Positions 1 to 16,742 of a stretch of DNA of 16,742 nt are shown here, one piece after another (within the stretch, counting starts at the first letter, position 1; every line of letters begins with the position of its first letter). The DNA is from a virus. The position numbers were made by a program, and so were the translations under genes. The DNA lies in the UHGV virus genome UHGV-0281303; one strand, written 5' to 3'. The notes beneath the pieces were generated by a model. It saw only the letters and a program-made list of their open reading frames with translations. It ran no database searches and was not told the DNA's origin.

Positions 1-73
1 TCTCGACAATGGCTTATACCCTACACGGGATAACTTAACTGATATCCCTTTTAACGGATAAACGGAGCCAACA

Positions 74-316
74 ATGGCAGAGATTATTCCCATGACTGAA
101 GAACAGAAATTCCAGCTAGAGATTTACAAGCTGGTCATGAACCAGAACGCAGCCGCAGAGGAAGCATTTCAATTCATTGGCACTGACGAACTGAAGCTTG
201 AGCTATTCAAAATTCACTTCCAGTCAGGCGGCGCTAATTCAGATATCACGACCCGCACTATCGAAGCGGTGCGTAAATCGAAGGAAGCGTTAGACCTGTT
301 CACCACCGGAGCATAA
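74..316 (+). CDS. hypothetical small protein (80 aa) immediately upstream of the terminase small subunit
   Basis: ATG at 74 with GGAG 6-7 nt upstream; stop TAA 2 nt before the next start. Same strand and tightly packed with the terminase genes. No family recognised. Confidence 0.6.
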   Translation: MAEIIPMTEEQKFQLEIYKLVMNQNAAAEEAFQFIGTDELKLELFKIHFQSGGANSDITTRTIEAVRKSKEALDLFTTGA

Positions 317-318
317 AC

Positions 319-759
319 ATGGCGCGCCCAACAAAGTATCAAGAGGCGTACGCCGAACAGGCACGCAAACTGTGCTTGCTGGGCTACACCGATGCAGAAC
401 TTGCTGATTTCTTTGAAGTTAGTGAGTCAACTATTAACAAGTGGAAGCTTGATTATCCTAAGTTTTCGGAGTCCATAAAAAGGGGTAAGGCCGTCGCTGA
501 TGCAGAAGTTAGTGATCGTCTTTATCAGCGCGCTATGGGCTTCGTGGCTCCAGACATCGATATTCGTGTTATTGAAAACAGAATTGTCGAAACTCCGCTT
601 GAGAAGTATTACCCGCCTGATACAACCGCCGCCATCTTCTGGCTTAAGAACCGACAGAAGGATAAATGGCGCGACAAGGTTGATCACGAGCTAACAGGCA
701 AAGACGGCGGCGCAATTCAGATTGAAACATCACCGATGAGCACTCTATTCGGAAAATGA
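319..759 (+). CDS. terminase small subunit (Sf6 gp1-like / P22 gp3 position)
   Basis: 146 aa directly upstream of the large terminase with an ATGA stop/start overlap. The C-terminal tail ...GKDGGAIQIETSPMSTLFGK matches my recollection of Sf6 small terminase; the N-terminal region looks like a DNA-binding helix-turn-helix segment. Confidence 0.85.
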   Translation: MARPTKYQEAYAEQARKLCLLGYTDAELADFFEVSESTINKWKLDYPKFSESIKRGKAVADAEVSDRLYQRAMGFVAPDIDIRVIENRIVETPLEKYYPPDTTAAIFWLKNRQKDKWRDKVDHELTGKDGGAIQIETSPMSTLFGK

Positions 760-2171
760 CCTCGATTAATCCTATCTTTGAACCGTTCATTGAGGCGCAT
801 CGCTACAAAGTCGCCAAAGGCGGTCGAGGTAGCGGAAAGTCTTGGGCAATTGCGAGGCTGCTTGTTGAAGCGGCGCGTCGGCAGCCTGTGCGCATACTTT
901 GCGCTCGTGAGCTGCAAAACAGTATCAGCGATTCGGTAATTCGGTTGCTTGAAGACACCATAGAGCGGGAAGGGTATTCGGCCGAGTTTGAAATTCAGCG
1001 TTCCATGATTCGTCATCTCGGAACGAATGCTGAGTTCATGTTCTACGGCATCAAAAACAACCCGACAAAGATTAAATCGCTCGAAGGTATTGATATCTGC
1101 TGGGTGGAAGAAGCGGAAGCGGTAACGAAGGAATCATGGGATATCCTGATACCAACCATCCGTAAGCCGTTCTCTGAAATATGGGTGAGCTTTAACCCGA
1201 AGAACATACTCGACGATACCTATCAGCGATTCGTTGTAAATCCTCCCGATGATATTTGCCTGCTGACGGTGAACTACACCGACAACCCGCACTTTCCTGA
1301 AGTTCTCCGTCTGGAGATGGAAGAGTGTAAACGCAGAAATCCGACCCTGTATCGTCACATCTGGCTTGGTGAGCCAGTGAGCGCAAGTGATATGGCAATC
1401 ATCAAACGTGAATGGCTTGAAGCCGCAACCGATGCGCACAAGAAACTCGGATGGAAAGCGAAAGGCGCGGTTGTTTCTGCTCATGACCCGTCAGATACAG
1501 GGCCGGATGCTAAAGGTTATGCATCGCGTCACGGTTCGGTAGTTAAGCGCATTGCCGAAGGTCTTCTGATGGACATCAACGAGGGGGCTGACTGGGCTAC
1601 TTCGCTGGCGATTGAAGACGGTGCTGACCATTACCTGTGGGATGGTGATGGCGTCGGTGCAGGGCTACGCAGACAGACAACGGAAGCGTTCTCCGGTAAG
1701 AAAATCACCGCCACGATGTTCAAGGGCAGCGAATCGCCATTTGATGAAGATGCACCATATCAGGCTGGAGCATGGGCTGATGAAGTCGTGCAGGGCGACA
1801 ACGTTCGCACTATTGGCGATGTGTTCCGCAATAAGCGAGCGCAATTCTATTACGCGCTGGCTGACAGGTTGTATCTGACATATCGGGCGGTTGTCCACGG
1901 TGAGTATGCAGACCCCGACGACATGCTGAGCTTCGACAAAGAAGCGATAGGCGAGAAGATGCTGGAGAAGCTGTTTGCAGAACTGACGCAGATTCAGCGC
2001 AAATTCAATAACAACGGGAAGCTGGAGCTTATGACTAAGGTCGAAATGAAGCAGAAGCTCGGTATTCCATCTCCTAACCTGGCTGATGCGCTGATGATGT
2101 GTATGCATTGCCCGGAGTCGGCTGCGCAACCCGACTATTCCAGTTACTCAATTCCTTGTGGTGTAGGTTGA
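756..2171 (+). CDS. terminase large subunit (ATPase plus nuclease)
   Basis: 471 aa. Walker A-like motif AKGGRGSGKS near residue 20 (about nt 813-845). Size and position match the P22-like/Sf6 large terminase (about 470-500 aa). ATGA overlap with the upstream gene, 1 nt gap to the portal gene. Confidence 0.92.
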   Translation: MTSINPIFEPFIEAHRYKVAKGGRGSGKSWAIARLLVEAARRQPVRILCARELQNSISDSVIRLLEDTIEREGYSAEFEIQRSMIRHLGTNAEFMFYGIKNNPTKIKSLEGIDICWVEEAEAVTKESWDILIPTIRKPFSEIWVSFNPKNILDDTYQRFVVNPPDDICLLTVNYTDNPHFPEVLRLEMEECKRRNPTLYRHIWLGEPVSASDMAIIKREWLEAATDAHKKLGWKAKGAVVSAHDPSDTGPDAKGYASRHGSVVKRIAEGLLMDINEGADWATSLAIEDGADHYLWDGDGVGAGLRRQTTEAFSGKKITATMFKGSESPFDEDAPYQAGAWADEVVQGDNVRTIGDVFRNKRAQFYYALADRLYLTYRAVVHGEYADPDDMLSFDKEAIGEKMLEKLFAELTQIQRKFNNNGKLELMTKVEMKQKLGIPSPNLADALMMCMHCPESAAQPDYSSYSIPCGVG

Positions 2172-2172
2172 T

Positions 2173-4371
2173 ATGGCAGAAAAAAAGATGACTGACTGGC
2201 ATCGCAAGGTGCTGTGCAACTTTGATAATGCCTGGTCAGCAACGCAGGATATGCGTAAGCAGATTATTGAGGCTCAACGTTTCGTCCGGGTGTCCGGCGC
2301 ACAGTGGGAAGGCAGCACAAACGCTGGTTACTCATTTGATGAAGGCAGGTTTGAGCATTACCCGCGCTTTGAACTGAATAAGATTGCCCGTGAATGTGAT
2401 CGCATCATTGGCGAGTATCGACAGAATCGCATCAGCGTTAAATTCAGGCCGAAGGATGACAAGGCATCGGAAGCGTTAGCCGAAAAGATGAACGGCAAAT
2501 TCCGCGCTGATTATCAGGAAACATCCGGTGGCGAAGCGTGTGATAACGCATTTGATGATGCTGTAACGGGCGGATTCGGTTGTTTCCGCATGTGTGCTGA
2601 TTACGAAGATGAAATGGATCCGAGTAACGAGCAGCGACGCATCAGCCTTCTTCCTGTTTACGACCCGGCGACATGCGTCTTCTTCGATCAGGACAGCAAG
2701 CAATATGACCGCTCTGATGCCATGTGGGCTATGGAAATGTTCTCCATGACGCCTAAAGCGTTCGAGGCTGAATACCCTGATTCCATCGCGGCAAGCCCTT
2801 CTCGTGATGACACTGGTACTCAGTATGACTGGTTAACGCCTGACGCCATCTATGTTGGACGCTACTACGAAGTCCGCATAGAGAAGGTGAAGCTCACAGC
2901 ATGGCGTAACCCTGTCAGCGGAGAAACGGCAATCTATGATGAAGAGCAAATCAAAGATATTGTCGACGAGCTGACCGATGGTGCATTCGAACTGATTGGC
3001 GAGCGAACGGTGAAGAAACGCCGAGTTTATTGCGGTCTTCTGTCTGGCGCTGAATGGCTGGAAGAACCGAAGCGTATTCCGGGCGAACATATTCCTCTCA
3101 TCCCGGTATATGGGCGTCGTTCATTTGTTGATAATCAGGAGCGAATCGAAGGCCACGCAGCAAAAGCGATGGATGCACAGCGTCTTGAGAACCTGATGGT
3201 TTCCATGATTGCAGATAACGCTACTCAGGCTGGCGGCGATGGCATTCCTATCGTGGATGTTGATTTCATTCCCGGTCCATTAATGAATCACTGGGCAGAG
3301 AGGAATAAGAAAAGACCTGCAGTTCTTCCCATGACCAGCAAGAAGGACAAAAACGGAACGGTCATTTCAGAGGCTCAGGTTGCTGGCTGGACACCTCCGA
3401 CACAAATGCCTCCTGCTCTTGCTGGGCTATTGCAGTACACCGGAACGGCTATTCAGCAAATTACAGGTGCGTCGCAGCTTGAGAACATGCCGAGCAACGT
3501 CGCTACCGATACCGTTGATAGCATCTTTAACCGGATGGACACGCAGTCCTATATCTACATGGACAACATGGCTAAATCCATGCGCCGTGCTGGCGTCGTG
3601 TGGCTTTCTATGGCTCGTGAAGTCTATGGCAGCGATACGCCAATGCGCATCGTTAATGAGGATGGCAGCGATGACGTGGCGCTGATGACTGGTGAAGTGG
3701 TTGACCGTCAGACAGGGAAGGTTATCGCGCTTAACGACCTTTCGCAGGGTAACTATGAAGTGACTGTCGATGTCGGTCAGTCGTTCGCTACTCGCCGTGA
3801 TGCAACGGTTAAGTCGTTGCTTTCCATGCTGGCACTTATCCCGCCAGGAACGCCGAAGCATGACCTTGTATCGTCGATGATTCTCGACAATATGGACGGC
3901 GAAGGGATGGACGACCTTAAAGAATACAACCGCAATCAGTTGCTTCTGTCTGGCGTTATTAAGCCGAGAACACCAGAAGAACAGCAAATGGTTGAGCAGG
4001 CGAAACAACAACAGGCCAGTCAGCCAGATCCGGCTATGGTTGCTGCGCAAGGTCAGCTTCTTGCTGGTCAGGCTGAATTGCAGAAAGCGCAGAACGAACA
4101 GGCAGCCATTCAGGTTAAAGCATTCCAGGCACAGACTGATGCTCAGGTTGCAGCGGCAAATGTTGTGAAAATCCTCGCATCTGCCGATAGCCAGCAGAAA
4201 TCTGATATCCGCGAGGCTCTGAAACTGCTCGGACAGTTCCAGCAACAGCAAGGAGACAATGCCCGTGCTGATGCAGAGCTTGTCCTGAAAAGTCAGGCAC
4301 AGGGCCATGCGCAGCACATGGACATCAGCAGCATCCTGCAAAAATCAACTCAGCAACAACCACAGCAGTAA
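2173..4371 (+). CDS. portal protein with long C-terminal Gln/Ala-rich helical barrel
   Basis: 732 aa. The C-terminal ~130 residues (PEEQQ...DPAMVAAQGQLLAGQAELQKAQNEQ...) closely resemble the P22 portal C-terminal barrel as I recall it. Gene order terminase-portal-scaffold-coat. Confidence 0.92.
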   Translation: MAEKKMTDWHRKVLCNFDNAWSATQDMRKQIIEAQRFVRVSGAQWEGSTNAGYSFDEGRFEHYPRFELNKIARECDRIIGEYRQNRISVKFRPKDDKASEALAEKMNGKFRADYQETSGGEACDNAFDDAVTGGFGCFRMCADYEDEMDPSNEQRRISLLPVYDPATCVFFDQDSKQYDRSDAMWAMEMFSMTPKAFEAEYPDSIAASPSRDDTGTQYDWLTPDAIYVGRYYEVRIEKVKLTAWRNPVSGETAIYDEEQIKDIVDELTDGAFELIGERTVKKRRVYCGLLSGAEWLEEPKRIPGEHIPLIPVYGRRSFVDNQERIEGHAAKAMDAQRLENLMVSMIADNATQAGGDGIPIVDVDFIPGPLMNHWAERNKKRPAVLPMTSKKDKNGTVISEAQVAGWTPPTQMPPALAGLLQYTGTAIQQITGASQLENMPSNVATDTVDSIFNRMDTQSYIYMDNMAKSMRRAGVVWLSMAREVYGSDTPMRIVNEDGSDDVALMTGEVVDRQTGKVIALNDLSQGNYEVTVDVGQSFATRRDATVKSLLSMLALIPPGTPKHDLVSSMILDNMDGEGMDDLKEYNRNQLLLSGVIKPRTPEEQQMVEQAKQQQASQPDPAMVAAQGQLLAGQAELQKAQNEQAAIQVKAFQAQTDAQVAAANVVKILASADSQQKSDIREALKLLGQFQQQQGDNARADAELVLKSQAQGHAQHMDISSILQKSTQQQPQQ

Positions 4372-4461
4372 TTAACCCATAACGTGCAATGGCTGTCTTT
4401 ATGAGGCCTGGCACCCTATTGCCTTCCGATGGGCTGAACATCGAGTAAACAGGGGTAACAA

Positions 4462-5355
4462 ATGGACCAGATGGCAGAAAACACACCAGAAGTTGAAATC
4501 GAACCCGACGCGTCAGAGCAGATTCCTGATGATGTCGAACTGGCTGAAGAAGTCGAAAAAGCAGATGGCAGTGAGTCCTCAGGAAATGATGCAGAGGAAG
4601 CTACTGACACTGATGACGACGAATCAGAACAGGAATTCTACTTTGGTGACGAAAAGCTGGATTCGCCAACCAGCGAAGATAGCGCAGAGCATGGACTGGT
4701 AAAACACCTGCGCAAGACGATTAAAGAGAAAGACCGTGAGCTGAAAGAGCTGATGCGTCAGTCTCAGAAACCCGTCGAGCAGCAGCCGGTAATCACTCAA
4801 CCACCGCGAATGCCAAAACTGGATGATGAGGACATCGGTTTCGATGAAGAAATCTACCAGCAACGCATGGCTAAGTGGGCAGAGGATAACGGCAAGTACC
4901 AGCAACAGGAGATGGCTCGCAAGCAGAAGGAGCAGGAGCTTCAGGCTGCCTATCAAGAGCGATTATCCAAATATCAGCAACGTGTTAAGGCTCTCAAAGT
5001 TCCTGGCTATCAGGAAGCTGAGCAGGCCGTACTCGAGGAAATCCCCATCGAGACACAAAACGCGATCCTGTTTGAGTCAGAGAAGCCGGAAATCGTTGTT
5101 CTGGCACTCGGTCGCAACGCTGAACTGCGCAAGCAACTGGCAGAAGCTACCAACCCCGTAGCAATTGGTCGTCTGCTGGAACGTATCGAATCGAAGGCCA
5201 GAATCATGCCAAAAGCAAAAACCACGGCAGCCACAACCCCGACAGTTAAGGGGAGCAACGGCGCAGTAATCAACAACCTCGGCAAATTGAAAGCCAAGGC
5301 GCTGGAAACTGGTGACTGGACGCCGTATTTCGCCGCTAAAAAGGCAAAAAAATAA
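4462..5355 (+). CDS. scaffolding protein
   Basis: 297 aa, highly charged, with an acidic N-terminal region, predicted helical KE/Q-rich middle and a basic C-terminal tail (...AAKKAKK). Sits between portal and coat, as P22 gene 8 (303 aa) does. AGGGG-type ribosome-binding site upstream. Confidence 0.8.
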   Translation: MDQMAENTPEVEIEPDASEQIPDDVELAEEVEKADGSESSGNDAEEATDTDDDESEQEFYFGDEKLDSPTSEDSAEHGLVKHLRKTIKEKDRELKELMRQSQKPVEQQPVITQPPRMPKLDDEDIGFDEEIYQQRMAKWAEDNGKYQQQEMARKQKEQELQAAYQERLSKYQQRVKALKVPGYQEAEQAVLEEIPIETQNAILFESEKPEIVVLALGRNAELRKQLAEATNPVAIGRLLERIESKARIMPKAKTTAATTPTVKGSNGAVINNLGKLKAKALETGDWTPYFAAKKAKK

Positions 5356-5373
5356 CCTATCGGAGCATTAAGC

Positions 5374-6627
5374 ATGGCTAACCAATTAGCAAAAGACCTT
5401 GAAATCATGTTCGAAAACTACGTTGAAGGCTTTGAGGCCGCCTGCGTAGTTTCCCGTAACGCTAAAAAATTCCGTCCCGGTGATACAGCAATGCAGCGAG
5501 CAGGTGATGTTCTGTATCGTCCGCAGCATTACCACATGAACATTGAGGAAGGCCTAGACCTCAGCGGCAAAACGCCAACAGCACTGGTTCAGCGCCTTGT
5601 TCCTTCTGTGTTCAAGGAACCGAAAAACATTCTGTACACTCTGGATGCGCGTGAAATGCGTGACCCGGAACATAAAACTGAAGCTGGTCGCGCCGCAGGT
5701 ATGCGCCTTGCTGCACAGATTGACTCTGACCTGATTTCCATGGTTACGCAGCGTGCTACTAACGTGATCACGATGGCTGACTCAACCACAGGTACACAGG
5801 GCCGTGATTTGTGGAACTGTGCGGCAGGTATTGATGCCACCATGACGGCGATAGGTGTACCGCAGGGTATCAACCGTCGCTCTTTCTGGAACCCCTTCAA
5901 CTACAAAGACCTTGCTGGCGAGCTTGGTCACCGTGCCTATGCTCAGGGCGCAACCCTGACAGCATACGAAAAAGCGCAAATCCCTCCGGTTGCGTCCTTC
6001 GATAGCTACAAGACCGATATTTCTGGTCGTGTTCCGAAGGGTACAGCAACTTCCATTACGCTGGCAGCAGCACCTGCGCACAAGGTTGAAGCGAAAGATG
6101 CTAACGATATGCCAGTGGATAACCGACAGGGGACCATTACGGTATCTGCTGAAGGTTTGCAGGTTGGCGATGCGTTTACCATTGCAGGGGTGAATTCTGT
6201 ACACCAGATCACCAAAGATACCACCGGGCAGCCGCAGGTATTCCGCGTTCTGGCAGTAAGCGGAACGACAGTAACTATCTCCCCGAAAATTCTGCCACCT
6301 GACAACGCGGATGTCGCCAGCCGTCCATATGCAAACGTTGATGCTAATGCGGCAAGTGGCGCAGCAATCACCATTCTCAACAAAAATGCCGCACCGGCTA
6401 ACCTGTTCTGGGCTGATGGTTCTGTTGAACTGATGTACGGCAAACTGGCGTTCCCGACTGGTCAGGGTCCACAGGTAATGACAGCAACCACCGAGCAGGG
6501 CGCTACGCTGATCATGTCTTATGCCTTCGACCACATCAAAGGCGTAACCACTGCTCGTTTCACCACTCTGTACGGTTGCTCTGTACTTGTTCCTGAATAT
6601 ACGGGCATCGTTATTGCCGGGCAGTAA
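5374..6627 (+). CDS. major capsid (coat) protein
   Basis: 417 aa, GGAG ribosome-binding site 8 nt upstream, followed by a strong intrinsic terminator. Size and position match P22-like coat proteins (about 420-430 aa). Confidence 0.85.
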   Translation: MANQLAKDLEIMFENYVEGFEAACVVSRNAKKFRPGDTAMQRAGDVLYRPQHYHMNIEEGLDLSGKTPTALVQRLVPSVFKEPKNILYTLDAREMRDPEHKTEAGRAAGMRLAAQIDSDLISMVTQRATNVITMADSTTGTQGRDLWNCAAGIDATMTAIGVPQGINRRSFWNPFNYKDLAGELGHRAYAQGATLTAYEKAQIPPVASFDSYKTDISGRVPKGTATSITLAAAPAHKVEAKDANDMPVDNRQGTITVSAEGLQVGDAFTIAGVNSVHQITKDTTGQPQVFRVLAVSGTTVTISPKILPPDNADVASRPYANVDANAASGAAITILNKNAAPANLFWADGSVELMYGKLAFPTGQGPQVMTATTEQGATLIMSYAFDHIKGVTTARFTTLYGCSVLVPEYTGIVIAGQ

Positions 6628-6633
6628 TTTTGG

Positions 6634-6656
6634 TGGGGCTTCGGCCCCATTTTTAT
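6634..6656 (+). terminator. rho-independent terminator / attenuator after the coat gene
   Basis: GC stem GGGGC (6635-6639), TTCG loop, GCCCC (6644-6648), then ATTTTTATT. Lies immediately 3' of the coat stop codon. Confidence 0.7.
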
Positions 6657-6668
6657 TGGGAGAAGACA

Positions 6669-6857
6669 ATGGCACGAACAATGCTCTATAAGCCGGGCAA
6701 CATGATCACCTGTGGTCAGTTTGCTGTCGATTACATCATTGTTGATGACGAAGAAGTTAAATCTCACCTGAAAAAAGGCTGGGTAAAAACTCCTGAAGAA
6801 ACCGCAACGAAGCATAAAGTGGCTAAGGCGGAAGAAGATGGCGAAAACGAAGGGTGA
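6669..6857 (+). CDS. small hypothetical protein (62 aa) between coat and gp4-like gene
   Basis: ATG at 6669 preceded by GGGAGA. The ORF track's longer version starts at a TTG at 6630 that lies inside the terminator hairpin, so I prefer the ATG. Its 3' end overlaps the next gene by 20 nt. Basic and Glu-rich at the C-terminus. Confidence 0.45.
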   Translation: MARTMLYKPGNMITCGQFAVDYIIVDDEEVKSHLKKGWVKTPEETATKHKVAKAEEDGENEG

Positions 6858-7299
6858 TCTCGTTCTTAAGGCTTTACGAAAAGCCGGGCTGTATTCCAAT
6901 GCCACGTTGACAGATGCTGACCCTCAGGCAATTGAAGATGCCATTAATGACCTCGAAGACATGATGGCAGCATGGCAGGCTAAAGGTATCGAGCTTGGAT
7001 ATCAGTTTGCTGATACAGAAAACGGCATCATGCCGTTACCTGACGATGATTCAGGTATCCCTGCATGGGCAAATGATGGCGTCGCTTTGAAACTCGCTGT
7101 GCAAGTGTGCATGGATAACGTCATTCAGCCGTCAGACGCTCTCCTTACCGCTGCTGACAGTGCATATCAGACAATCTGTATCGCTTTAACCAAAATACCA
7201 CCACTTGAGCGGCGAAATGACATGCCTCGCGGTAGTGGTAACAAAAGCGCGTTTACGTGGAATCGGTTTTACATCGAGAAAGATGATCCGAGTACGTGA
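6838..7299 (+). CDS. head-to-tail adaptor / head completion protein (P22 gp4-like)
   Basis: 153 aa. N-terminus MAKTKGDLVLKALRKAGLYSNATLTDADPQAIEDAINDLEDMMAAW resembles P22 gp4 as I recall it; C-terminal PRGSGNKS motif region. Position after coat. Confidence 0.8.
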   Translation: MAKTKGDLVLKALRKAGLYSNATLTDADPQAIEDAINDLEDMMAAWQAKGIELGYQFADTENGIMPLPDDDSGIPAWANDGVALKLAVQVCMDNVIQPSDALLTAADSAYQTICIALTKIPPLERRNDMPRGSGNKSAFTWNRFYIEKDDPST

Positions 7300-7308
7300 G
7301 GTGAATAA

Positions 7309-8727
7309 ATGCCGATTCAGCAACTTCCGCTTATGAAAGGTGTCGGCAAAGACTTTCGAAACGCCGACTATATCGACTATCTGCCAGTGAATATGCTGGC
7401 TACACCAAAAGAAATCCTTAACAGCAGCGGATATCTTCGCTCATTCCCGGGCATTGCCAAACGTTCTGATGTGAACGGCGTATCGCGCGGCGTCGAGTAC
7501 AACATGGCGCAGAGTGCTGTTTATCGCGTGTGTGGTGGCAAGCTGTACAAAGGAGAAAGTGAAGTCGGTGATGTTGCCGGAAGTGGTCGCGTATCAATGG
7601 CGCATGGTCGGACATCACAGGCGGTAGGCGTTAATGGTCAACTGGTCGAGTATCGCTATGATGGTACGGTTAAAACCGTCTCAAACTGGCCTACAGACAG
7701 TGGATTCACTCAGTATGAGTTAGGTTCAGTTCGCGACATTACGCGCTTACGTGGGCGTTATGCGTGGTCAAAAGACGGAACTGATTCATGGTTTATCACT
7801 GACCTTGAAGACGAATCTCATCCTGACCGTTACAGCGCACAATATCGTGCCGAGTCTCAGCCTGACGGAATCATCGGCATCGGAACATGGCGAGATTTCA
7901 TCGTCTGCTTTGGTTCATCGACGATTGAATATTTTTCCCTGACAGGTGCAACCACCGTTGGTGCAGCTTTGTATGTCGCACAGCCATCACTGATGGTGCA
8001 AAAAGGCATCGCCGGGACTTACTGCAAAACGCCGTTTGCTGATTCCTATGCGTTCATCAGCAATCCGGCAACAGGTGCTCCGTCTGTATACATCATCGGC
8101 TCCGGTCAGGTGTCACCAATCGCCAGTGCGAGCATTGAGAAAATCCTCCGCTCCTACACTGCTGATGAACTGGCTGATGGTGTGATGGAATCGCTGCGAT
8201 TTGATGCGCATGAGCTTCTGATTATCCACCTTCCGCGCCATGTTCTGGTGTACGACGCATCTTCAAGCGCTAATGGTCCGCAATGGTGTGTGTTGAAAAC
8301 TGGCTTGTATGACGATGTGTACCGCGCTATCGACTTCATTTACGAAGGCAATCAGATAACGTGCGGAGATAAGCTGGAATCGGTTATCGGCAAATTGCAG
8401 TTCGATATCAGCAGCCAGTATGGGCTACAGCAAGAACACCTGTTGTTTACACCACTCTTCAAAGCTGAGAACGCCAGATGTTTTGATCTGGAAGTTGAAT
8501 CATCGACTGGTGTCGCTCAGTATGCTGACCGCCTGTTCCTCTCTGCAACCACTGACGGCATAAATTACGGTCGTGAGCAGATGATTGAGCAGAATGAACC
8601 GTTCGTTTACGACAAGCGCGTTTTGTGGAAGCGTGTCGGGCGAATCAGGAAAAATGTCGGCTTCAAACTTCGCGTTATCACAAAGTCACCTGTAACTCTG
8701 TCTGGCGCTCAGATAAGGATTGAGTAA
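7309..8727 (+). CDS. tail hub / head completion protein (P22 gp10-like)
   Basis: 472 aa, the same length as P22 gp10. N-terminus [49 protein letters not shown] matches my recollection of gp10 very closely. Confidence 0.9.
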
Positions 8728-9428
8728 TGGCGGATTCATCACTGAATAATCCTGTCGCGGTTCAGGCTACGCGCCTTGATGCTTCAATTTTGCCACGCAA
8801 TATATTCAGCCAGTCTTACCTGCTGTATGTCATTAATCAGGGGGCTGATGTCGGCGCAATTGCCGGGAAGGCAAATCAGGCTGGTCAGGGCGCTTACGAT
8901 GCTCAGGTGAAAAACGATGAACAGGATGTCGAACTGGCTGATCACGACGCAAGAATCACCGCAAACACAAAAGCGATAAATCTCCTTGAGGTCAGGTTAA
9001 CAACCGCCGAAGGGAAGATAGTCGTACTGCGTAGCGATGTTGATTACTTGCTGGATGAGGTTATCGATATTCAGGCGCATCTGGTCACTGTTGACCAAAG
9101 ACTGGATGGCGTAGAAAGCGATGTCTCTGGCATTAAGAGTGATTACGTATCGAAAACCGTAACAGAATCGCAGTCTCTTGCGTCACCGCTGGATGTAAAA
9201 ACATCATATTCAGTTGATGGAATTCAGGTCGTTGGAGCAAGGCAGACCGGATGGACTGCAGCCACAGGCACACCACTTCTTGGCTCATTCAACGCTAACC
9301 AGTCATACACGGTCGGCACTACGTACACACAATCCGAAGTCGCAGCTATCGCTACAGGTTTGGAGCAGGCGCGGCAGCGTATTCTGGCGCTTGAAACAGC
9401 ACTTAGATTACATGGGCTGATTGACTGA
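8727..9428 (+). CDS. tail needle (P22 gp26-like)
   Basis: 233 aa, the same length as P22 gp26. N-terminus [27 protein letters not shown]... and C-terminal ...[32 protein letters not shown] match the gp26 pattern; the central coiled-coil region is divergent. TAATG stop/start overlap with gp10. Confidence 0.9.
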
Positions 9429-9883
9429 TGATTACATTTAAACCAACGCGAAACATCGACTTGATCGAAGCAGTCGGAAATCACCCCGACATTATCGCCG
9501 GGAGCAACAACGGTGATGGATACGACTACAAGCCTGAATGCCGTTACTTTGAGGTGAACGTGCACGGGCAGTTCGGCGGAATTGTTTACTATCAGGAGAT
9601 TCAGCCGCTGACATTCGATTGCCACGCCATGTACCTGCCAGAGGTTCGTGGATTCAGCAAGGAAATCGGGCTGGCGTTCTGGAGATACATTCTGACTAAC
9701 ACCACTGTTCAGTGTGTCACATCGTTCGCTGCGCGCAAATTCCGCCACGGGCAGATGTACTGCGCAATGATTGGCCTTAATCGTGTAGGAACCATCAAGA
9801 AATACTTCAAAGGCGTGGATGACGTGACGTTTTACAGCGCCACACGCGAAGAACTAATCGACTTCCTGAATCACAGGAGATAG
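9428..9883 (+). CDS. gp14-like protein (ejection-protein assembly/accessory)
   Basis: 151 aa in the position of P22 gene 14, between the needle and the ejection proteins. Start overlaps the needle stop (ATGA-type overlap at 9426-9430). Confidence 0.75.
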   Translation: MITFKPTRNIDLIEAVGNHPDIIAGSNNGDGYDYKPECRYFEVNVHGQFGGIVYYQEIQPLTFDCHAMYLPEVRGFSKEIGLAFWRYILTNTTVQCVTSFAARKFRHGQMYCAMIGLNRVGTIKKYFKGVDDVTFYSATREELIDFLNHRR

Positions 9884-9885
9884 CC

Positions 9886-10575
9886 ATGTTATATGCATTT
9901 AAGCTGGGCAGAAAACTGCGCGGCGAGGAACCTTATTGCCCTGAAAAAGGCGGGAAAGGTGGCTCCGATAAAAGTGCAAAGTATGCCGCAGAAGCTCAGA
10001 AGTATGCCGCAGACCTGCAAAATCAGCAGTTCAACACCATCATGAATAACCTGAAGCCGTTTACTCCTCTGGCTGATAAGTATGTCGGCAGCCTCGAGAA
10101 CTTATCGTCTCTGGAAGGGCAAGGTCAGGCACTTAACCAGTATTACAACTCTCAGCAGTACAAAGATCTTGCTGGTCAGGCTCGCTATCAGAGTCTGGCG
10201 GCAGCGGAAGCAACAGGTGGATTGGGTTCCACTGCAACCGGTAATCAGTTAGCAACAATCGCACCAACGCTTGGTCAGCAGTGGCTGTCTGGTCAGATGA
10301 ACAACTACCAGAATCTGGCAAATATTGGTCTTGGCGCTCTTCAGGGGCAGGCAAACGCCGGGCAAACATATGCCAACAACATGAGCCAGATTTCACAGCA
10401 AAGCGCGGCGCTGGCGGCGGCAAACGCCAACCGACCGTCAGCATTGCAGCAGGGTGTTAGTGGTGCTGCATCCGGTGCGCTTTTGGGTGGTGGCATAGCC
10501 AGTGCTCTCGAGCTATCAACTCCGTGGGGTGCTGGTATCGGTGCTGGTCTTGGTCTGCTTGGCTCGTTGTTTTAA
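9886..10575 (+). CDS. ejection (E) protein, P22 gp7-like
   Basis: 229 aa, the same length as P22 gp7. Gly/Ala/Gln-rich C-terminal half with a terminal hydrophobic Gly-rich segment (GGGIASALELSTPWGAGIGAGLGLLGSLF). Position after gene 14. Confidence 0.75.
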   Translation: MLYAFKLGRKLRGEEPYCPEKGGKGGSDKSAKYAAEAQKYAADLQNQQFNTIMNNLKPFTPLADKYVGSLENLSSLEGQGQALNQYYNSQQYKDLAGQARYQSLAAAEATGGLGSTATGNQLATIAPTLGQQWLSGQMNNYQNLANIGLGALQGQANAGQTYANNMSQISQQSAALAAANANRPSALQQGVSGAASGALLGGGIASALELSTPWGAGIGAGLGLLGSLF

Positions 10576-10585
10576 GGGGTAATCA

Positions 10586-11935
10586 ATGGCTACGTGGCAA
10601 CAGGGTATTAATTCTGGTGGTTTTCTGGCTGGCATTGGTGCGCAAAATGAGAATGCGCCAAAGGCAAGCGACATTAACGCAACGCTTGGTCTGATTCGCG
10701 AAAACAATGAACTGGCTCGATCAGGTGCAAATAACGTTGGTCTGACCGCGTTACGTGGTCTGGCTGGAGTTGCTGATATTTATAAGCAGGAACAGCAACA
10801 GAAAGCTATTAGTGCGTTCAATAAGGTTCACGCTGATGCATGGGCTTCTGGTGATCCATCGGGACTATTTAAGTTTGCCCAGGAAAATCCAGCGTTTGTT
10901 GCACAGGCACAACAGGCGTTTTCCGGTCTTAATGATCAGCAACGCAACGATATGGGCGATTTAGCCATGAGGGCTAACGTCGCTCTTTCTCAGGGACCGG
11001 AAGCCTACAGTAAATTCATTACTGACAACAAGGACAGGTTAAATCGCGTTGGTGCTAATGCTGACTGGATGATTCAGACAGGTATCCAGAATCCAGAGCA
11101 GCTATCACACATGCTGACTACTATGTCTCTCGGTGCGCTTGGACCAGAAAAGGCGTTTGCTGTTCAGGATAAGATGGTTGGTCGCCAGCAGGAGCAGCAA
11201 AGAATTAACGAAACCATTCGCAATAATGACATGACGAATGCGAGGGCTATTAGGGGGCAGGATCTTTCCTATAAGGCTCAAATGGCAAGACTGAATCACG
11301 ACAAGTATGTGTTTAAGCAGTCACAGGCGGCCCTTGAAAGAGCAGGACAACTTCAGGATATGGATGTTTTGTCTCTTAACTCACAGATAGCAGCGACGGG
11401 AATTGATCCGCTAACCGGTAAAGCTGCAACGTCAGCCAGAATGTCTCAGGCTAAGAGATGGCTTGATGGCAACAATAATTACAACAATGCGTTGATTACT
11501 GGTGAGCGAGGGATAGAGAAAATTGATTCTTTGCTTGGTAAGAAGGAGCTTGAAGGTATCGGTCGCTTCGAAGGAAGAAATATAGATGGCTTCACAAGTG
11601 CTGAAGGGCTTGCAAACCGTAATGCGATAGAAGAATTAAAGTCGGGTGCGTTTGTCCAGAACGTGCAGACTATGCGAGGTATGGGTAGCCTCTCCAATGC
11701 TGAAGGCCAAAAACTGGAAAACCTGATCGCGAAACTCGATATAACACAGCCTGAAGAGGTCGTCAGAAAACAGTTATCTGAAATACGATCTCAATATTCT
11801 GTATTTCAAAAGGTTGCAGCAAGGGAGGCTGAATCAATGGGATATAGTTCATCAGGTTATGACACATATGTTAGTGAGCGAAAATCAGGAAGCGACAGCA
11901 ATAAGTCCGGTTTCTCGTCTTTATGGGGTGATTAA
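10586..11935 (+). CDS. ejection (E) protein, P22 gp20-like
   Basis: 449 aa in the gene 20 position. AAGGGG ribosome-binding site upstream. The 3' third of the gene is noticeably more AT-rich than the 5' part. Confidence 0.7.
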
Positions 11936-14103
11936 TGGCTAAGGCATGGAAAGATGTTATCGCTTCTCCACAGTATCAGGCGTTAACTGAAGAACAGAAA
12001 GCACAGGCTCAAGCGCAATATTTTGATGAGGTTGTTGCCCCTAAGGCTGGTGACAAATGGGCTGAAGCAAGAGATCAGTTTTATGCAGCATACCCTCCGC
12101 CTCAGCAGCAGAAAGAAGAACCATCATTGATGCAACAAGCTGGTGATTGGCTCACAGGTGGTCAAAGTGCAGGGCAAATTGCAGAACAGGCTGGTCGTGG
12201 TCTGGTAAACATACCATTTGACGTATTGCAGGGTGGCGCAAGTCTGATTAATGCAATCAGCCAGGGGCTTGGCGGCCCCAAGGTTTTGGATGATGTTTAT
12301 CGCCCCGTCGATCGACCGACAGACCCTTACGCGCAAGCCGGTGAAACAATTGGTGGGTATCTCCTGCCAATTGGCACAGCGGCAAAAGCTGCTGGATCGC
12401 CAGCAAAGCTCGCTGAAGATATCGGTTCCGCAGGAAACATGATTGCAGGTTCTCTTGCTGATGCTGCAAATCAGGAGGGCGACTTTGCACAAAATGCTGC
12501 CATTAACGGTGGTATCAATATTGGTGCTCAGGGGATACTTTCTGGCGCTGGAAGGATCTTAACATCTAAATCACCTCAAGTTCTTGGTGGCGGGGCAATA
12601 AATTCCGCTGCTGATGTTTCGAAAATGGCAAAGTCTGGTACAGGAAGAGAGATTATTGCCAGACAGTCAGCTAATGTGTCAGACGAAATAGCAAAAGCAG
12701 CAGATACTGCTGGAATAGATATCAACGCATTAACTCCTGGCATGAGATCAGGTAGTCGTGGTCTTGCTCAGGCGGAGGGGATTCTGGCGTCAAAGCCCGG
12801 AATTACACAGGATGCACACACCAAAGCATTCAGTGAAATAGAGTCGAAATTTAACTCAGCATTGGATGAGTTTGGGGCTGAAGCAGGAACTGCATCAGAA
12901 AAAAGTGCAGCCATAAAACAAAGGGTTTTGGCAAGTATTGATAAAATGAAAAATTCAGAAAAGGCCGCATGGGATAGCGTCCGCTCCACGATGCCTGACG
13001 CAAAGGCCAGAATGTCAAACCTGAACGCTACAATTCAGGGTGATATTTTGGCTGGCATGCCGCTAACTCCTGAGATGAAACAATTCGCATCTGCTTATGC
13101 TAAAACTGGTAAAAAAGGAATCACGTTTGATGCCATGAAGGCATGGCGAAGTAAACTTGCTGACGCAGAGCAGAAGTATATAAGGTCTGGTGAGGCAAAT
13201 ACGGCAAGGCGCATGGCTGAGCTTCGTGATGCAGCAACGGAAGATATGCGCATAATGGCTCAAAATGGCGGTTTTCTTGATGACTGGCAAAAAGCTAATG
13301 ATCTGTCAAAGGCAAGATTTACAGCACAAGAACAGGCTGAAGCGGCGTTTGGTAGAGACCTTGCAACTGATCAGTTGGTAACTAATGGCTCTAAGGCGTT
13401 ACAGGGTTCAGCAAAAAGTGGAACAGGTCAGTTCCATAAAATAATAAGTGCCCTACCTGAGTCAGAACGCGCGCCAGCAATTGCATCAATATTACAAGAT
13501 GCAATGTCGCAAGGGGTACGCGGAGGTAAGTCTGAAGAGGCTGGAATTAAGCATATCGCGACTATTCTTACCCCACAAAACGTGAAGGCAATTAGTCGAT
13601 ATTCTCCAGAACTTGGCAGGATTACAAGTTCATACGGAGAACTTGCACGAGCAGCAACAAAGCCACTTCGATATGTTGAACAGACAGGGCGATCTATGCC
13701 AGCCATTAGCACTCTTGAGAATGGCCTTCATCCAGTTTTAGAGAGCGCATTGTCTGGCGCTTTTAGAACTACTGGCACTATCGCAGGGTTCTCTGGAGGA
13801 GGCGTTATTGGAGCAATAGCGGGTGGCGCTGCAGGTGGGGCAATTGATGCAATGGCAAAAGGAGCGATAGCGAAATTATCCGCAACTAGAAGCGGTCGTT
13901 ACGCTATTGAAAAGGCTGTTCAAGAGGCAACAAAGGCAGTTAAGGTTGGGGCAAGTGATGGCGCATTAGCGGCGGCGGAACGCAGATTTATGGCAAATAA
14001 GGCCGCCGTAAAAGCAATACGCGAGGCACTAGGAAACGAAGAGTTCCAGCGTTTAGCAAGAGCTGGAATTGTGGCATCGCTAAGCGGAATGGCACAGGAG
14101 TAA
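11935..14103 (+). CDS. ejection (E) protein, P22 gp16-like (extended, 722 aa)
   Basis: Last gene of the late train, start overlapping the upstream stop. Gly/Ala-rich hydrophobic segment near the C-terminus ([29 protein letters not shown]), compatible with a membrane-active ejection protein. Longer than P22 gp16 (about 609 aa). Confidence 0.7.
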
Positions 14104-14487
14104 TTAGTCATCCATGGATGGATTGAGCTTATCTCGTGTTGATGTGGCAATTTTCCCAACATTTTTCAACCAAGATTTTAAGAAGGATATGTCGTCCTTA
14201 ATATCATGAATATCCTCATTCTTTATACGATCAACCTTATCCTCTAAGCTCTCTATAGAACGCTCAATGCTAGACAGAGAGATTTTTAAGTCCCCTTGCT
14301 CACGTTCCAGTGAGGATTTGAGAGCATAATATTCGTTTTCTAGAATTCCTATTTTTTTTGTTAGAGAGTGCATTCGATACTCATACACCAAACCAGAAAC
14401 GACTAATGCAGCCAACAGAAACCATTCAAGCACACCAACCTCCTTAGTTTTGAGCAGGATACCAGATGATGTATGGAGAGGCATCAT
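14104..14487 (-). CDS. small membrane protein with N-terminal TM helix and C-terminal coiled coil (sieA-position cargo gene)
   Basis: 127-codon ORF in AT-rich DNA, where long ORFs are unlikely by chance. Hydrophobic segment VLEWFLLAALVVSGLVYEY, then a heptad-like charged region (LENEYYALKSSLEREQGDLKISLSSIERSIESLEDKVDRIKNE). No obvious Shine-Dalgarno before the ATG, so the start is uncertain. Its stop abuts the gp16-like stop with zero spacer (TAA/TTA at 14101-14106). Confidence 0.55.
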   Translation of the reverse strand: MMPLHTSSGILLKTKEVGVLEWFLLAALVVSGLVYEYRMHSLTKKIGILENEYYALKSSLEREQGDLKISLSSIERSIESLEDKVDRIKNEDIHDIKDDISFLKSWLKNVGKIATSTRDKLNPSMDD

Positions 14488-14508
14488 CTACTGGTGATAG
14501 AACGATGG

Positions 14509-14537
14509 TTGCATAATGATATCACGTGACGTAGAAT
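14509..14537 (+). promoter_or_regulatory. candidate sigma70 promoter for the two-gene cassette, with overlapping palindromes in the spacer
   Basis: -35 TTGCAT (14509-14514), 17-bp spacer, -10 TAGAAT (14532-14537). The spacer holds palindromes TGATATCA (14517-14524) and TCACGTGA (14522-14529). Predicted start site is about 60 nt upstream of the ATG at 14606. Confidence 0.4.
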
Positions 14538-14605
14538 TACTGCGCATAGCGTGTATTCAATGGATGCATAGCTATTGATAATCTCCGATAAGAAAGGAGG
14601 TTTGT

Positions 14606-15172
14606 ATGAGCAATGAGACTAATGGGATTGATGAAATGTTTAGCTTGAACGCTGCCAAAGCTGGAGTCGCAATAGGTTTGCTATTACAGCAAGCTTCTGC
14701 GTTCAGTTGTGAGGTGGTTGTTACTGATAACGTTCAGCACGCTTACCATCAATCCTCATTCAGCAGTGAACAGGCTAATGATGAGCTTCATGAGGCGGTG
14801 TCTTCGATTAAAGAATTGTCTCGAATGCTGAAATACGCTTATCGTGTTCTTGCAAACGCTACCGATGAGAATGTAGACAATGTGTTGTCTATCATTGAAC
14901 CAGAAAAGTCTCGATTGATAGAGCATCAATTGAGAGGACTTGAAGGGGCAATGAAATCGGTATTCAAAGAAGCTTCTGCTGATTTTAAAGAGATCGCAAG
15001 AGATATCTATATCGTTGTTGCTGATGCTAGATCTGCCGTAACTAACCTGAATAGTCTTATTAAACAACGCTCATGTGTTCCGGTTGTTTTTGATAGTTCC
15101 GTAGATATGGCTGGTTTGCGTGCGCTTGCTGAGCACGGGACTCGTGTGTTTCACTCTGGTAACTTCCACTGA
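14606..15172 (+). CDS. hypothetical protein (188 aa), upstream partner of the YafO-like toxin; candidate antitoxin/immunity component of unknown family
   Basis: Strong ribosome-binding site AAGGAGG 5 nt upstream of the ATG. Stop codon TGA overlaps the Shine-Dalgarno (GAGG) of the downstream gene, with an 8-nt gap. Acidic, predicted mostly helical, no DNA-binding or TM motif that I recognise. Confidence 0.75.
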   Translation: MSNETNGIDEMFSLNAAKAGVAIGLLLQQASAFSCEVVVTDNVQHAYHQSSFSSEQANDELHEAVSSIKELSRMLKYAYRVLANATDENVDNVLSIIEPEKSRLIEHQLRGLEGAMKSVFKEASADFKEIARDIYIVVADARSAVTNLNSLIKQRSCVPVVFDSSVDMAGLRALAEHGTRVFHSGNFH

Positions 15173-15180
15173 GGTAAAAC

Positions 15181-15630
15181 ATGCAAGTAACCGTGGAATA
15201 TAATCAGGATAGTTTTGACTATTTTTTCTCCCCGGTTTTTGTTGAGTTTCCTGATTTAAAACAAACACTTGTAGATGATTTTATCATCTACAAGTCTACG
15301 GGAACGTTGCCCAGCTATTTTGGCAGAGACACCTCTTATCATCGGCCTCCTGATATTGAAGATGCAGGTCTTATGCACCTTCATTTAGCAATTGGTGAAA
15401 ATAAATTTGAGCCAATAAAAAATGGCACAGATATCAGCACACCGCAAAAGTTGCAGTGGCATAAAACATCCAATACCGCTCTCGTTTATGCACAAAATCT
15501 TTTTGATGAGAACAGGTATTCATTGATTGCTCTTTTTCATCCAGTAGCTCACATGTCTGCTAACAATCATAATAGAATGAGAGTGTTAGCAGGGTATGCG
15601 AGAGACTTTAGAAACACTATGTTTGACTAA
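15181..15630 (+). CDS. YafO-family toxin-like protein (ribosome-dependent mRNA interferase family)
   Basis: 149 aa. Motifs DFIIYKSTGTLPSYFGRD, HLHLA, ALVYAQNLFDENRYSLIALF and NNHNRM...FR align by eye with E. coli YafO as I recall it (DFISYKRDGVLPDTFGRD, HIHLA, HLVYCQGAFDEQAWLLIAIL, NNQMH...FR). Followed by an intrinsic terminator. Confidence 0.8.
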   Translation: MQVTVEYNQDSFDYFFSPVFVEFPDLKQTLVDDFIIYKSTGTLPSYFGRDTSYHRPPDIEDAGLMHLHLAIGENKFEPIKNGTDISTPQKLQWHKTSNTALVYAQNLFDENRYSLIALFHPVAHMSANNHNRMRVLAGYARDFRNTMFD

Positions 15631-15656
15631 ACCCACCGTCAGGTGGGTTTTTTTAT
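15630..15656 (+). terminator. rho-independent terminator after the toxin gene
   Basis: Stem ACCCACC (15631-15637), loop GTCA, GGTGGGT (15642-15648), then a T-run to 15654. Starts immediately after the stop codon at 15628-15630. Confidence 0.75.
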
Positions 15657-15686
15657 CTTCTCTACTTTAAAGATTAAGGAAATACC

Positions 15687-15866
15687 ATGACCATAGAAGA
15701 ACGTGTGGAAAACCTTGAACGCACCATCAAAGTGATGAAGTGCCATCTTGGAGAACTTCATCTTGAATCACTGAAGCATCAAGCAGAAGAGCTTGAGAAA
15801 TCAGCAAAATCAATGCGCAGTCGTTACGATTCGACTCTGGAGGCTATTAAAAACGGTAGCTATTGA
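15687..15866 (+). CDS. small hypothetical coiled-coil protein (59 aa)
   Basis: ATG at 15687 with AAGGA 7 nt upstream; charged helical sequence (MTIEERVENLERTIKVMK...). Not in the ORF track, presumably because it is under the length cut-off. Its 3' end overlaps the 3' end of the convergent minus-strand ORF by 20 nt, so one of the two may be spurious. Confidence 0.35.
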   Translation: MTIEERVENLERTIKVMKCHLGELHLESLKHQAEELEKSAKSMRSRYDSTLEAIKNGSY

Positions 15867-16032
15867 TACGAGAAGCAGTATCCAGATCATCCCTATCTCC
15901 GCTTCTTGTTAGTTCATCAAAAACAGCTTGTCGAGCATCTGGTGGCAACTTGGAGTAGATAAGTGATACCAGTTTATGAAGTTTCTTTAACTCGCGCTGC
16001 AACTCTTCGTTAGACATTGGTTTATTATTCAT
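15847..16032 (-). CDS. hypothetical protein (61 aa), distal gene of the mnt operon
   Basis: ORF in AT-rich DNA on the same strand as and downstream of mnt and orf90, 24-nt gap from orf90. Weak Shine-Dalgarno (AGGT about 9 nt upstream). No family recognised. Confidence 0.5.
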   Translation of the reverse strand: MNNKPMSNEELQRELKKLHKLVSLIYSKLPPDARQAVFDELTRSGDRDDLDTASRINSYRF

Positions 16033-16056
16033 TTTACATACCTGCCATGTACGCCG

Positions 16057-16329
16057 TTAATTAACTAATGTCATTGAACCTGGAAGGTTGCCACCTCTGA
16101 GATCAATACATTCTTCAGCTGTAGCCATTCTCCAATTTCCAAAAGCATCACGTATAGCAAATTGGTCTTCAAAGCCAAGCCAGATAGAGCACTGACCAAA
16201 CTCATCATATGTCTCTATCCGTATTGACTCTTCGGTAAACGGATAATAAGCTTCATATCTCTTTGCAAGCTCAATAGTGAAAGGAAGTACTTTTATTTGC
16301 TCGAAAATTTCTTTGTTCGTTGGTTTCAT
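16057..16329 (-). CDS. hypothetical protein (90 aa), translationally coupled to mnt
   Basis: Start ATG overlaps the mnt stop (ATGA, 16326-16329). GGGATGGG/AAGGGA purine-rich stretch 6-10 nt upstream. No family recognised. Confidence 0.6.
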   Translation of the reverse strand: MKPTNKEIFEQIKVLPFTIELAKRYEAYYPFTEESIRIETYDEFGQCSIWLGFEDQFAIRDAFGNWRMATAEECIDLRGGNLPGSMTLVN

Positions 16330-16568
16330 TTCCCATCCCTTACACGTTGTAGAACATCAATAGTCACATCAAGAGCCTCTTTCTCTGACTTGGTCAGTTG
16401 CTGACTACTTGAAGGTATTACCTGCTCTTTATGTATCTTTATCCACAATTGGATAGCGGCAATAATTTCAGCATTGATAGAGCGACGATTTGTTGCAGCA
16501 ATATGCGTAAGTTGCTGTTTTATCTCATCTGGCATTCTTACGTTGAATTGCGGATCATTTCTAGCCAC
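16326..16568 (-). CDS. mnt: Mnt-like ribbon-helix-helix repressor (immI region)
   Basis: 80 aa starting at a GTG (reverse complement of CAC at 16566-16568) with AAGGAG 6-7 nt upstream. N-terminus MARNDPQFNVRMPDEIKQQLTHIAATNRRSINAEIIAAIQ resembles P22 Mnt (MARDDPHFNFRMP...ANGRSMNSELLQIV) as I recall it. Divergent from an Arc-like gene. Confidence 0.85.
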   Translation of the reverse strand: MARNDPQFNVRMPDEIKQQLTHIAATNRRSINAEIIAAIQLWIKIHKEQVIPSSSQQLTKSEKEALDVTIDVLQRVRDGK

Positions 16569-16585
16569 GTCATTCTCCTTTTATT

Positions 16586-16640
16586 TGTTGACATGCTAGA
16601 ACGGTAGTAGTACGCTTTCAATAGTAGTACGGTAATACCA
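16586..16640. promoter_or_regulatory. divergent overlapping promoter/operator region between mnt and arc, with a direct repeat TAGTAGTACG
   Basis: + strand: -35 TTGACA (16588-16593), 17-bp spacer, weak -10 TACGCT (16611-16616). - strand: -35 TTGAAA (complement of 16616-16621), 17-bp spacer, -10 TAGCAT (complement of 16593-16598). Direct repeat TAGTAGTACG at 16605-16614 and 16623-16632, each containing the palindromic core GTAC. Confidence 0.4.
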
Positions 16641-16653
16641 CAAAGGGGATGAC

Positions 16654-16742
16654 ATGCAAGGTGCAAGAAAAATGCCGCAGTTCAATTTGCGGTGGCCTAA
16701 AGAAGTATTGGATTTGGTGCGCAAGGTAGCTGAAGAGAACGG
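16654..16742 (+). CDS. arc: Arc-like ribbon-helix-helix repressor, 5' part only (truncated by the window end)
   Basis: Translation MQGARKMPQFNLRWPKEVLDLVRKVAEENG... resembles P22 Arc (MKGMSKMPQFNLRWPREVLDLVRKVAEENGRS...) as I recall it. AAAGGGGA ribosome-binding site upstream. Runs off the window. Confidence 0.85.
   Translation, partial: MQGARKMPQFNLRWPKEVLDLVRKVAEEN

Follow-up and report, generated by a model that had tools for sequence, protein, structure and literature searches.

A YafO-family gene and its unannotated helical partner form a candidate toxin-antitoxin cassette carried as prophage cargo

The stretch of virus genome UHGV-0281303 analysed here (16,742 nt, hereafter the window) is a segment of a CUS-3-like, P22-type prophage, and it carries two adjacent genes that pose a specific question: does the first of them, gene A, encode an antitoxin for the second, gene B, which reads as a toxin of the YafO family? 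A preliminary description, drawn from the DNA letters alone, had proposed that the two genes constitute a self-contained cassette, that the upstream gene belongs to no recognised antitoxin family, and that the pair may be an abortive-infection or exclusion module of an undescribed type. Both open reading frames (ORFs) are real and lie at exactly the coordinates first given for them (Table 1). The reading preferred here, held at somewhat better than an even chance, is that the cassette is a type II-like toxin-antitoxin (TA) module carried as prophage cargo (a moron), with A as the dedicated neutraliser of the YafO-type protein B.

The family of B was sought by profile and pairwise comparison. 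B matched the Pfam YafO_toxin profile (PF13957) with 78.9 bits (E=3.4e-22) over profile positions 3-101 of 101, far above the gathering cut-off of 25, and aligned with K-12 YafO at 38% identity over 120 residues (E=7e-20); the original identification of the second gene as a YafO-family member therefore stands. The motifs FGRD, HxHL, LVY, DE and P..H are common to B and K-12 YafO and are invariant across 15 homologues, and the fold matches obtained for B were to RelE, HigB and YafQ toxins. As a member of this family, B would be expected to be toxic and to cleave mRNA.

The genomic neighbours of A homologues, a survey of which the preliminary description had recommended, were inspected in approximately 60 loci from Escherichia, Salmonella, Klebsiella, Serratia, Enterobacter and Pseudomonas; the loci included P22-like prophages of Escherichia and Salmonella, HK639 and other siphoviruses, Pseudomonas phages, SSU5-like phage-plasmids of Klebsiella and Escherichia coli, and Serratia and Enterobacter genomes. 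A YafO-like gene lay directly downstream of A in every one of them, including those of the four most divergent A representatives, and conversely each phage YafO homologue inspected had an A-family gene upstream. Judged by this survey, A belongs to a conserved family whose linkage to one phage-borne clade of YafO is obligate in the Enterobacterales and in Pseudomonas. The junction between the two genes is also fixed. Stop and start codons are separated by 8 nt (TGAGGTAAAACATG), with a GAGG Shine-Dalgarno (SD) sequence overlapping the stop codon of A, and the pattern '..F-H TGA GGT nnnnn ATG/TTG' and its spacing of 8 nt are kept in nearly all of approximately 50 related loci, where many B homologues begin with the weak start codon TTG.

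The two proteins have diverged together. Their identities were correlated (r=0.89; 33 distinct pairs, 528 comparisons), and A was the more diverged partner in 98% of the comparisons, which is the usual pattern of an antitoxin relative to its toxin. Among approximately 70 copies, none was seen in which A was broken and B intact. The near-identical metagenomic copy in locus L021 (IMG/VR UViG 2537562173_000011) has an intact A and a B gene that is frameshifted after residue 16, the lesion being an expansion of a T-run from T6 to T7 at about 4620-4626; the toxin gene may have been knocked out naturally, or the extra base may be an error of sequencing. These data bear on two further possibilities, namely that B needs A as a co-factor, chaperone or activator, or that A and B are independent cargo sharing an operon, which together are regarded as very improbable. 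Independence is contradicted by the complete linkage, the fixed 8-nt junction and the co-divergence across approximately 60 loci, and an activating role for A would leave it unexplained how an active RelE-type toxin without an antitoxin is tolerated in the 55 healthy E. coli lineages described next.

The cassette is mobile as a unit. Of 5426 complete E. coli genomes, 55 carry the same segment of approximately 1160 bp at approximately 99% identity, S88, APEC O1 and ATCC 11775 among them. Each of these copies belongs to a P22-like prophage and lies between gp16 and mnt, yet the immediate neighbours vary, so the cassette is self-contained, as the preliminary description had supposed, and also mobile. 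Across phages, the pair occupies several moron sites: between gp16 and mnt, between the Q antiterminator and holin genes, inside tail-gene clusters, beside a siphoviral immI region, and next to the integrase gene.

Protein A resembled nothing of assigned function. No significant match was found in Pfam, NCBIfam, PADLOC or the PDB sequences, the only match being to phrog_8416, which has no assigned function, and 24 A-family members searched singly or as a profile gave no consistent match in the same libraries. Against K-12 YafN, BLASTP returned E=36, and no Phd/YefM profile of Pfam or NCBIfam was matched. The first gene had been described as lacking any known antitoxin family or DNA-binding domain, and this view held through all of these searches; nor did the Pfam and NCBIfam profiles reveal a known antitoxin fused to a known domain. 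The AlphaFold2 (AF2) model of A is a helical bundle only. The family is rare: a set of 5.8 billion proteins contained six clusters of it at 90% identity, and one of 1.84 billion contained 23 representatives at 50% identity.

Conservation within A is uneven, with a mean top-residue frequency of 0.47 for residues 108-188 against 0.28 for residues 36-107, and the C-terminal part carries the conserved motifs QLRGLEG, VAxARS..LNxLIxQ and GLRxLAxHGT..SGxFH. From this distribution, the C-terminal half (residues 108-188) is probably the toxin-binding part, and the fast-evolving N-terminal half would be free for another role. The final GNFH of A (15158-15169) belongs to an ...SGxFH ending that is nearly invariant in the enterobacterial members, and its last two codons adjoin the SD sequence of B; the constraint on this ending may act on the protein or on the RNA.

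The control signals of the cassette were examined by scanning and by comparative alignment. A consensus promoter scan of 14488-14605 reported no promoter, the -35 hexamer of the putative element having only 3 of 6 matches and falling below threshold. In the alignment, however, TTGC and TAnAnT were kept at fixed spacing in six loci with A proteins of 54-99% identity, including cassettes whose A proteins share only 54-66%. The promoter-like element of the preliminary description thus found no backing in the consensus scan and gained it from the conserved -35 and -10 elements, which suggest that this segment functions as a promoter. The spacer of the element contains the short palindromes TGATATCA and CACGTG (14520-14531, plus strand), and most of the string TGAyAyCAyGT is kept across diverged cassettes; the palindromes could be a candidate operator for some regulator.

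Translation of A would begin from a strong ribosome-binding site (RBS), as initially described, and the GGAGG of this site is invariant in related loci. The site is predicted to be sequestered in a leader stem of 7 bp with a CUCC/GGAG core, which appears in both the minimum-free-energy and the centroid folds. Across 14 distinct leaders, four pairs of the stem are invariant and two outer pairs are compensatory. The share of paired cells is 88.8%, whereas slid controls reach 46-51%; since the covariation mostly reflects one clade split, it lends modest support. The stem-loop is kept in P22-like and HK639-like cassettes and is absent from the most distant ones (Pseudomonas, PhiR40_1 and Klebsiella). 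At the other end, the terminator that had been attributed to the cassette was recovered by a terminator scan as a GC-rich hairpin of 9 bp (15629-15650) with a T-run behind it. Six loci with diverged coding DNA have it unchanged, and homology to differently flanked copies stops just past it.

Table 1. Positions of the cassette, its putative control signals and the neighbouring features in the window.
Feature	Position	Strand	Remarks
Gene A	14606-15172	+	ATG start; all-helical 188-aa protein of the unannotated family phrog_8416; proposed antitoxin of B
Gene B	15181-15630	+	ATG start; 149 aa; YafO-family (RelE/ParE-superfamily) putative mRNA endoribonuclease toxin
Putative sigma-70-like promoter	14509-14537	+	-35 TTGCAT 14509-14514; 17-nt spacer; -10 TAGAAT 14532-14537
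SD-sequestering leader stem-loop	14580-14602	+	AATCTCC 14580-14586 pairs with GGAGGTT 14596-14602; 9-nt loop
RBS of gene A	14594-14600	+	AAGGAGG, read directly from the sequence; 5 nt before ATG
Signal-peptide-like segment of A	14636-14710	+	A residues 11-35; MFSLNAAK-AGVAIGLLL-QQASA followed by FSC
Translational-coupling junction	15170-15183	+	TGA-GGTAAAAC-ATG; A stop, SD GAGG overlapping the stop, B start
Intrinsic terminator	15629-15660	+	AAACCCACCGTCAGGTGGGTTT plus T-run; terminator scan
gp16-like gene	11935-14103		722 aa
hkcC-like gene	14104-14433	-	ORF span 14104-14487
Small ORF	15687-15866	+	59-aa coiled-coil protein with its own RBS
Small ORF	15847-16032	-	61 aa; phrog_16466 match, E=3e-11
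Small ORF	16057-16329	-	90 aa; no match in any library
mnt	16326-16568	-	

The mechanism proposed for such a module is as follows. As a putative YafO-family mRNA endoribonuclease, free B would arrest translation, and A would most likely neutralise it through direct binding. The cassette's own promoter would drive both genes in the lysogen, and the leader hairpin would tune the translation of A. If B is translated only via its coupling to A, through the SD sequence that overlaps the A stop codon, B would never exceed A. Antitoxins usually also regulate the transcription of their own operon; this is not expected of A, which lacks a DNA-binding domain. B would be released once A is lost or inactivated, and candidate triggers are an infecting phage that halts host expression or interferes with A, or loss of the prophage itself; the outcome could be abortive infection, exclusion or post-segregational killing. 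From the moron context, the lysogen-expressed cassette may plausibly serve in phage defence, exclusion or addiction.

Set against the usual description of TA modules, the cassette consists of adjacent, co-oriented and co-transcribed small genes, one of which belongs to a known toxin family, and it lacks a DNA-binding antitoxin that would autoregulate the operon. That lack is one of several observations that weigh against the TA interpretation: no ribbon-helix-helix, helix-turn-helix, AbrB or Phd-YefM domain was detected in A (Pfam, E<=1) or in the 24 family members (E<=0.1). In addition, A (188 aa) is larger than the toxin (149 aa), and in PADLOC-DB v2 there was no match for B and only a ZorA2 tail match for A, at E=0.0033 and in 1 of the 24 members. 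With 79 bits, B stays below the cut-off of 153 set for the NCBIfam YafO equivalog (PRK09885), which indicates a family member of a separate clade and not an ortholog of K-12 YafO. Its AF2 model is poor (predicted local distance difference test score, pLDDT, 52) and lends weak support at most, and the protein is mildly acidic (net charge -5), which is unusual for RelE-type toxins that bind the ribosome or RNA. The phage-type YafO clade ranges from -1 to -10, with 0 for K-12 YafO and +6 for the YafO-like protein of CUS-3; as K-12 YafO is itself neutral, the acidity of B is not decisive against an RNase function. Lastly, most A proteins begin with a signal-peptide-like segment which, if functional, would place A in a compartment other than that of the cytoplasmic RNase.

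This N-terminus was therefore considered in its own right. Most members of the A family begin at the residue aligned with Met11 of the window protein and have an N-terminus that resembles the n-, h- and c-regions and AxA cleavage site of a Sec signal peptide (n-h-c/AxA), for example ..LCGVLAQPGAMA followed by ETF. In a crude test for this pattern, 17 of the 24 A members passed, as did 6 of 7 textbook signal peptides, whereas the rate among 419 background phage ORFs was 9%. In hydrophobicity the segment ranks low among true signal peptides, at about the level of MalE. Two other interpretations were considered and rejected: a lipoprotein, prompted by an invariant Cys35, does not agree with the residues before the Cys, which do not make a lipobox (relatives have H, P or C at -1), and a Tat (twin-arginine translocation) signal does not agree with the absence of a twin-arginine motif beside the h-region. 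Cys35 (14708-14710) comes directly after the hydrophobic segment, and neither the P22-like nor the HK639-like clade shows any other residue there.

A different arrangement of the pair can be imagined, in which A is Sec-exported or membrane-tethered and the pair links an event at the envelope, such as phage DNA injection, loss of proton-motive force or Sec stress, to activation or control of a cytoplasmic YafO-like RNase, acting as a superinfection-exclusion or abortive-infection device. The n-h-c/AxA pattern is found in almost every A subfamily, including those in which the remainder of the protein barely aligns, and its frequency relative to background ORFs speaks for such an arrangement, as do the charge distribution of A, which on inspection of the alignment favours an N-in/C-out orientation, and a low-confidence Pro/Gln-rich linker after the hydrophobic segment. 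The cassette site also carries membrane or exclusion-type cargo in relatives, and the hkcC-like gene of the window encodes a transmembrane (TM)-like segment. In P22 the same site carries sieA, a superinfection-exclusion gene. The h-region, on the other hand, has only 9 residues and is marginally hydrophobic in the clade of the window, which also has an acidic N-terminal extension of 10 residues; the GLLMQQ motif varies less than signal peptides commonly do; and one A member, P0039, has no hydrophobic N-terminus and is nevertheless paired with YafO. Moreover, no mechanism is apparent by which a cleaved periplasmic protein would restrain a cytoplasmic RNase, and the tight translational coupling and co-divergence indicate direct contact between A and B. 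An envelope-coupled pair is accordingly considered rather unlikely, though it is the main rival to simple cytoplasmic neutralisation of B by A. Slightly less likely still is the specific version in which A is exported or membrane-inserted and serves as the envelope-coupled antitoxin of a TA-like switch, an envelope-sensing form of abortive infection with no described counterpart. In that version, the cytoplasmic pool of A would be set by Sec or proton-motive-force status or by phage DNA injection, and changes in the pool would release the RNase.

The TA interpretation was next compared with known systems. In K-12, yafN-yafO lies in the dinB-yafN-yafO-yafP operon, and it resembles A-B in that the partner gene comes first and the toxin second with tight spacing, the toxins sharing PF13957 and the FGRD, HxHL and P..H motifs. 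The partners, however, are unrelated (A has 188 aa and is all-helical, whereas YafN has 97 aa), and A-B is phage-borne with its own promoter and terminator, whereas yafN-yafO belongs to an SOS operon. A closer parallel in position is ECRS218_0007/0008 of CUS-3, the closest sequenced phage, in which the cargo site between gp16 and mnt also holds an unannotated upstream protein of approximately 190 aa and an overlapping or coupled YafO-family gene. These overlapping genes (L056, CP000711.1 7577-8580) encode an unannotated 199-aa protein and a 139-aa YafO_toxin protein (E=3e-11). The CUS-3 pair has the opposite orientation to A-B, its YafO clade is distinct and basic (+6 versus -5), and its 199-aa partner has no hydrophobic N-terminus. 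Remote homology between A and this partner was considered and rejected (hidden Markov model score 1 bit, hhalign probability 0.14%). The 199-aa family occurs in E. coli, Salmonella and Pectobacterium, in the last of which the pair forms a stand-alone chromosomal island (L057/L058, 4001-5004). The placement of A in the antitoxin slot is supported by these other YafO clades, which likewise have obligate, unrelated upstream partners (YafN and the 199-aa protein).

Antitoxins that are non-canonical, lack DNA binding or have been swapped are exemplified by PaaA2-ParE2 and by the PanA type. A-B resembles such partner-swapped RelE/ParE systems in joining a toxin of presumed BECR fold to an unrelated helical partner; it differs from them in that A matches none of their antitoxin families, including DUF4065/PanA (Pfam, E<=1), and in that A is tied to a single toxin clade and is not promiscuous. 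Considering the sequences compared here, YafO-clade toxins have at least three unrelated families of upstream partner, which fits the partner swapping reviewed for TA modules of the RelE/ParE superfamily (PMC11980606). The claim of an undescribed type of module was therefore an overstatement: the toxin family and TA partner swapping are both known, and what is new is the partner family. With the morons found between gene 16 and immI in other phages (P22 sieA; HK620 hkcB and hkcC), the cassette shares its niche, a promoter and terminator of its own, a lower GC content and variable presence. There is no sequence relation to them, and the effector of A-B is a predicted cytoplasmic RNase and not a membrane exclusion protein.

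Even if A and B are a genuine TA pair, their role might be solely the selfish addiction or stabilisation of the prophage or cassette, with no anti-phage function; this concerns the biological role only and leaves the molecular mechanism unchanged. In its architecture the pair is like any ordinary TA module, neither protein was matched in PADLOC as a defence component, the A-B pair is found on SSU5-like phage-plasmids, where addiction modules are expected, and the related island of Pectobacterium stands outside any phage context. Conversely, nearly all A-B pairs are carried by phages, where they lie in classic hotspots for morons and exclusion genes of unrelated phage types, and integrated prophages would gain little from addiction of the plasmid kind. 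A purely selfish role is thus thought unlikely, though it merits some weight.

The surroundings of the cassette are those of a cargo region. Positions 1-14103 are 94% identical to phage CUS-3 over 96% of their length and encode the terminase, portal, coat and ejection proteins, the last gene being gp16-like. The AT-rich setting noted earlier is borne out, with a GC content of 0.37-0.43 across 14150-16700 against 0.44-0.51 in the structural genes. The cassette had also been placed between the gp16-like gene and mnt, which is correct as to the interval, but it directly adjoins neither: on the left an hkcC-like gene separates it from the gp16-like gene, and on the right three small ORFs precede mnt.

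The hkcC-like gene matches phrog_5962 (E=1e-60), and its product has a hydrophobic, TM-like N-terminal segment followed by a coiled coil. Its start is probably the GTG at 14433 (109 aa) and not the ATG at 14487, because the PHROG match begins at residue 19 and a strong, conserved SD sequence precedes the GTG. Between this gene and the cassette, 14434-14605 forms a conserved divergent control region on both strands. The leftward leader and RBS (CTAAGGAGGTTGGTGTG, minus strand, about 14431-14447) are invariant in six loci and serve different genes, encoding proteins of 109, 111, 140 and 297 aa; in locus L001 they are present without an annotated leftward gene. On the right, Salmonella loci L007-L009 hold the same three-ORF set as the window (15687-16329). 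L001 has no replacement for this set, and ATCC 11775 (L002) has in its place a ClpP-like protease gene (7186-7722, minus strand; 178 aa, truncated-looking; Pfam CLP_protease, E=2e-11). A ClpP-family gene lies between the cassette and mnt in many prophages of extraintestinal pathogenic and avian pathogenic E. coli (ExPEC/APEC), as further cargo at this hotspot.

In surveys of Pseudomonas aeruginosa prophages, these YafO genes appear as toxins that have no partner (PMC10449497, PMC12066637), and an A-family gene was identified upstream of YafO in D14L, one of the phages surveyed. The 'YafM antitoxin' label in GenBank PV340560 was considered and set aside as a pipeline annotation only; a single paper with 'YafO/YafM' lists it without experiments. 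Within the literature searched, no experimental paper was found on the cassette proteins, the HK639 loci, YafO in P22 or YafO as a moron. Within the libraries and literature searched, the partner family is unannotated and undescribed.

Prophage YafO has been reported as an orphan in both E. coli and P. aeruginosa, the upstream gene being labelled 'hypothetical' by annotation pipelines. The obligate, co-evolving A family gives these orphan toxins a candidate antitoxin and adds a third, unrelated partner class for the YafO clade. The module, at approximately 1.16 kb, is compact and portable, and its hosts include ExPEC/APEC strains of the sequence type 95 (ST95) kind (S88, APEC O1) and the type strain ATCC 11775. 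The combination of a signal-peptide-like N-terminus with a leader that would sequester the SD sequence could reveal a non-standard control of a RelE-type toxin.

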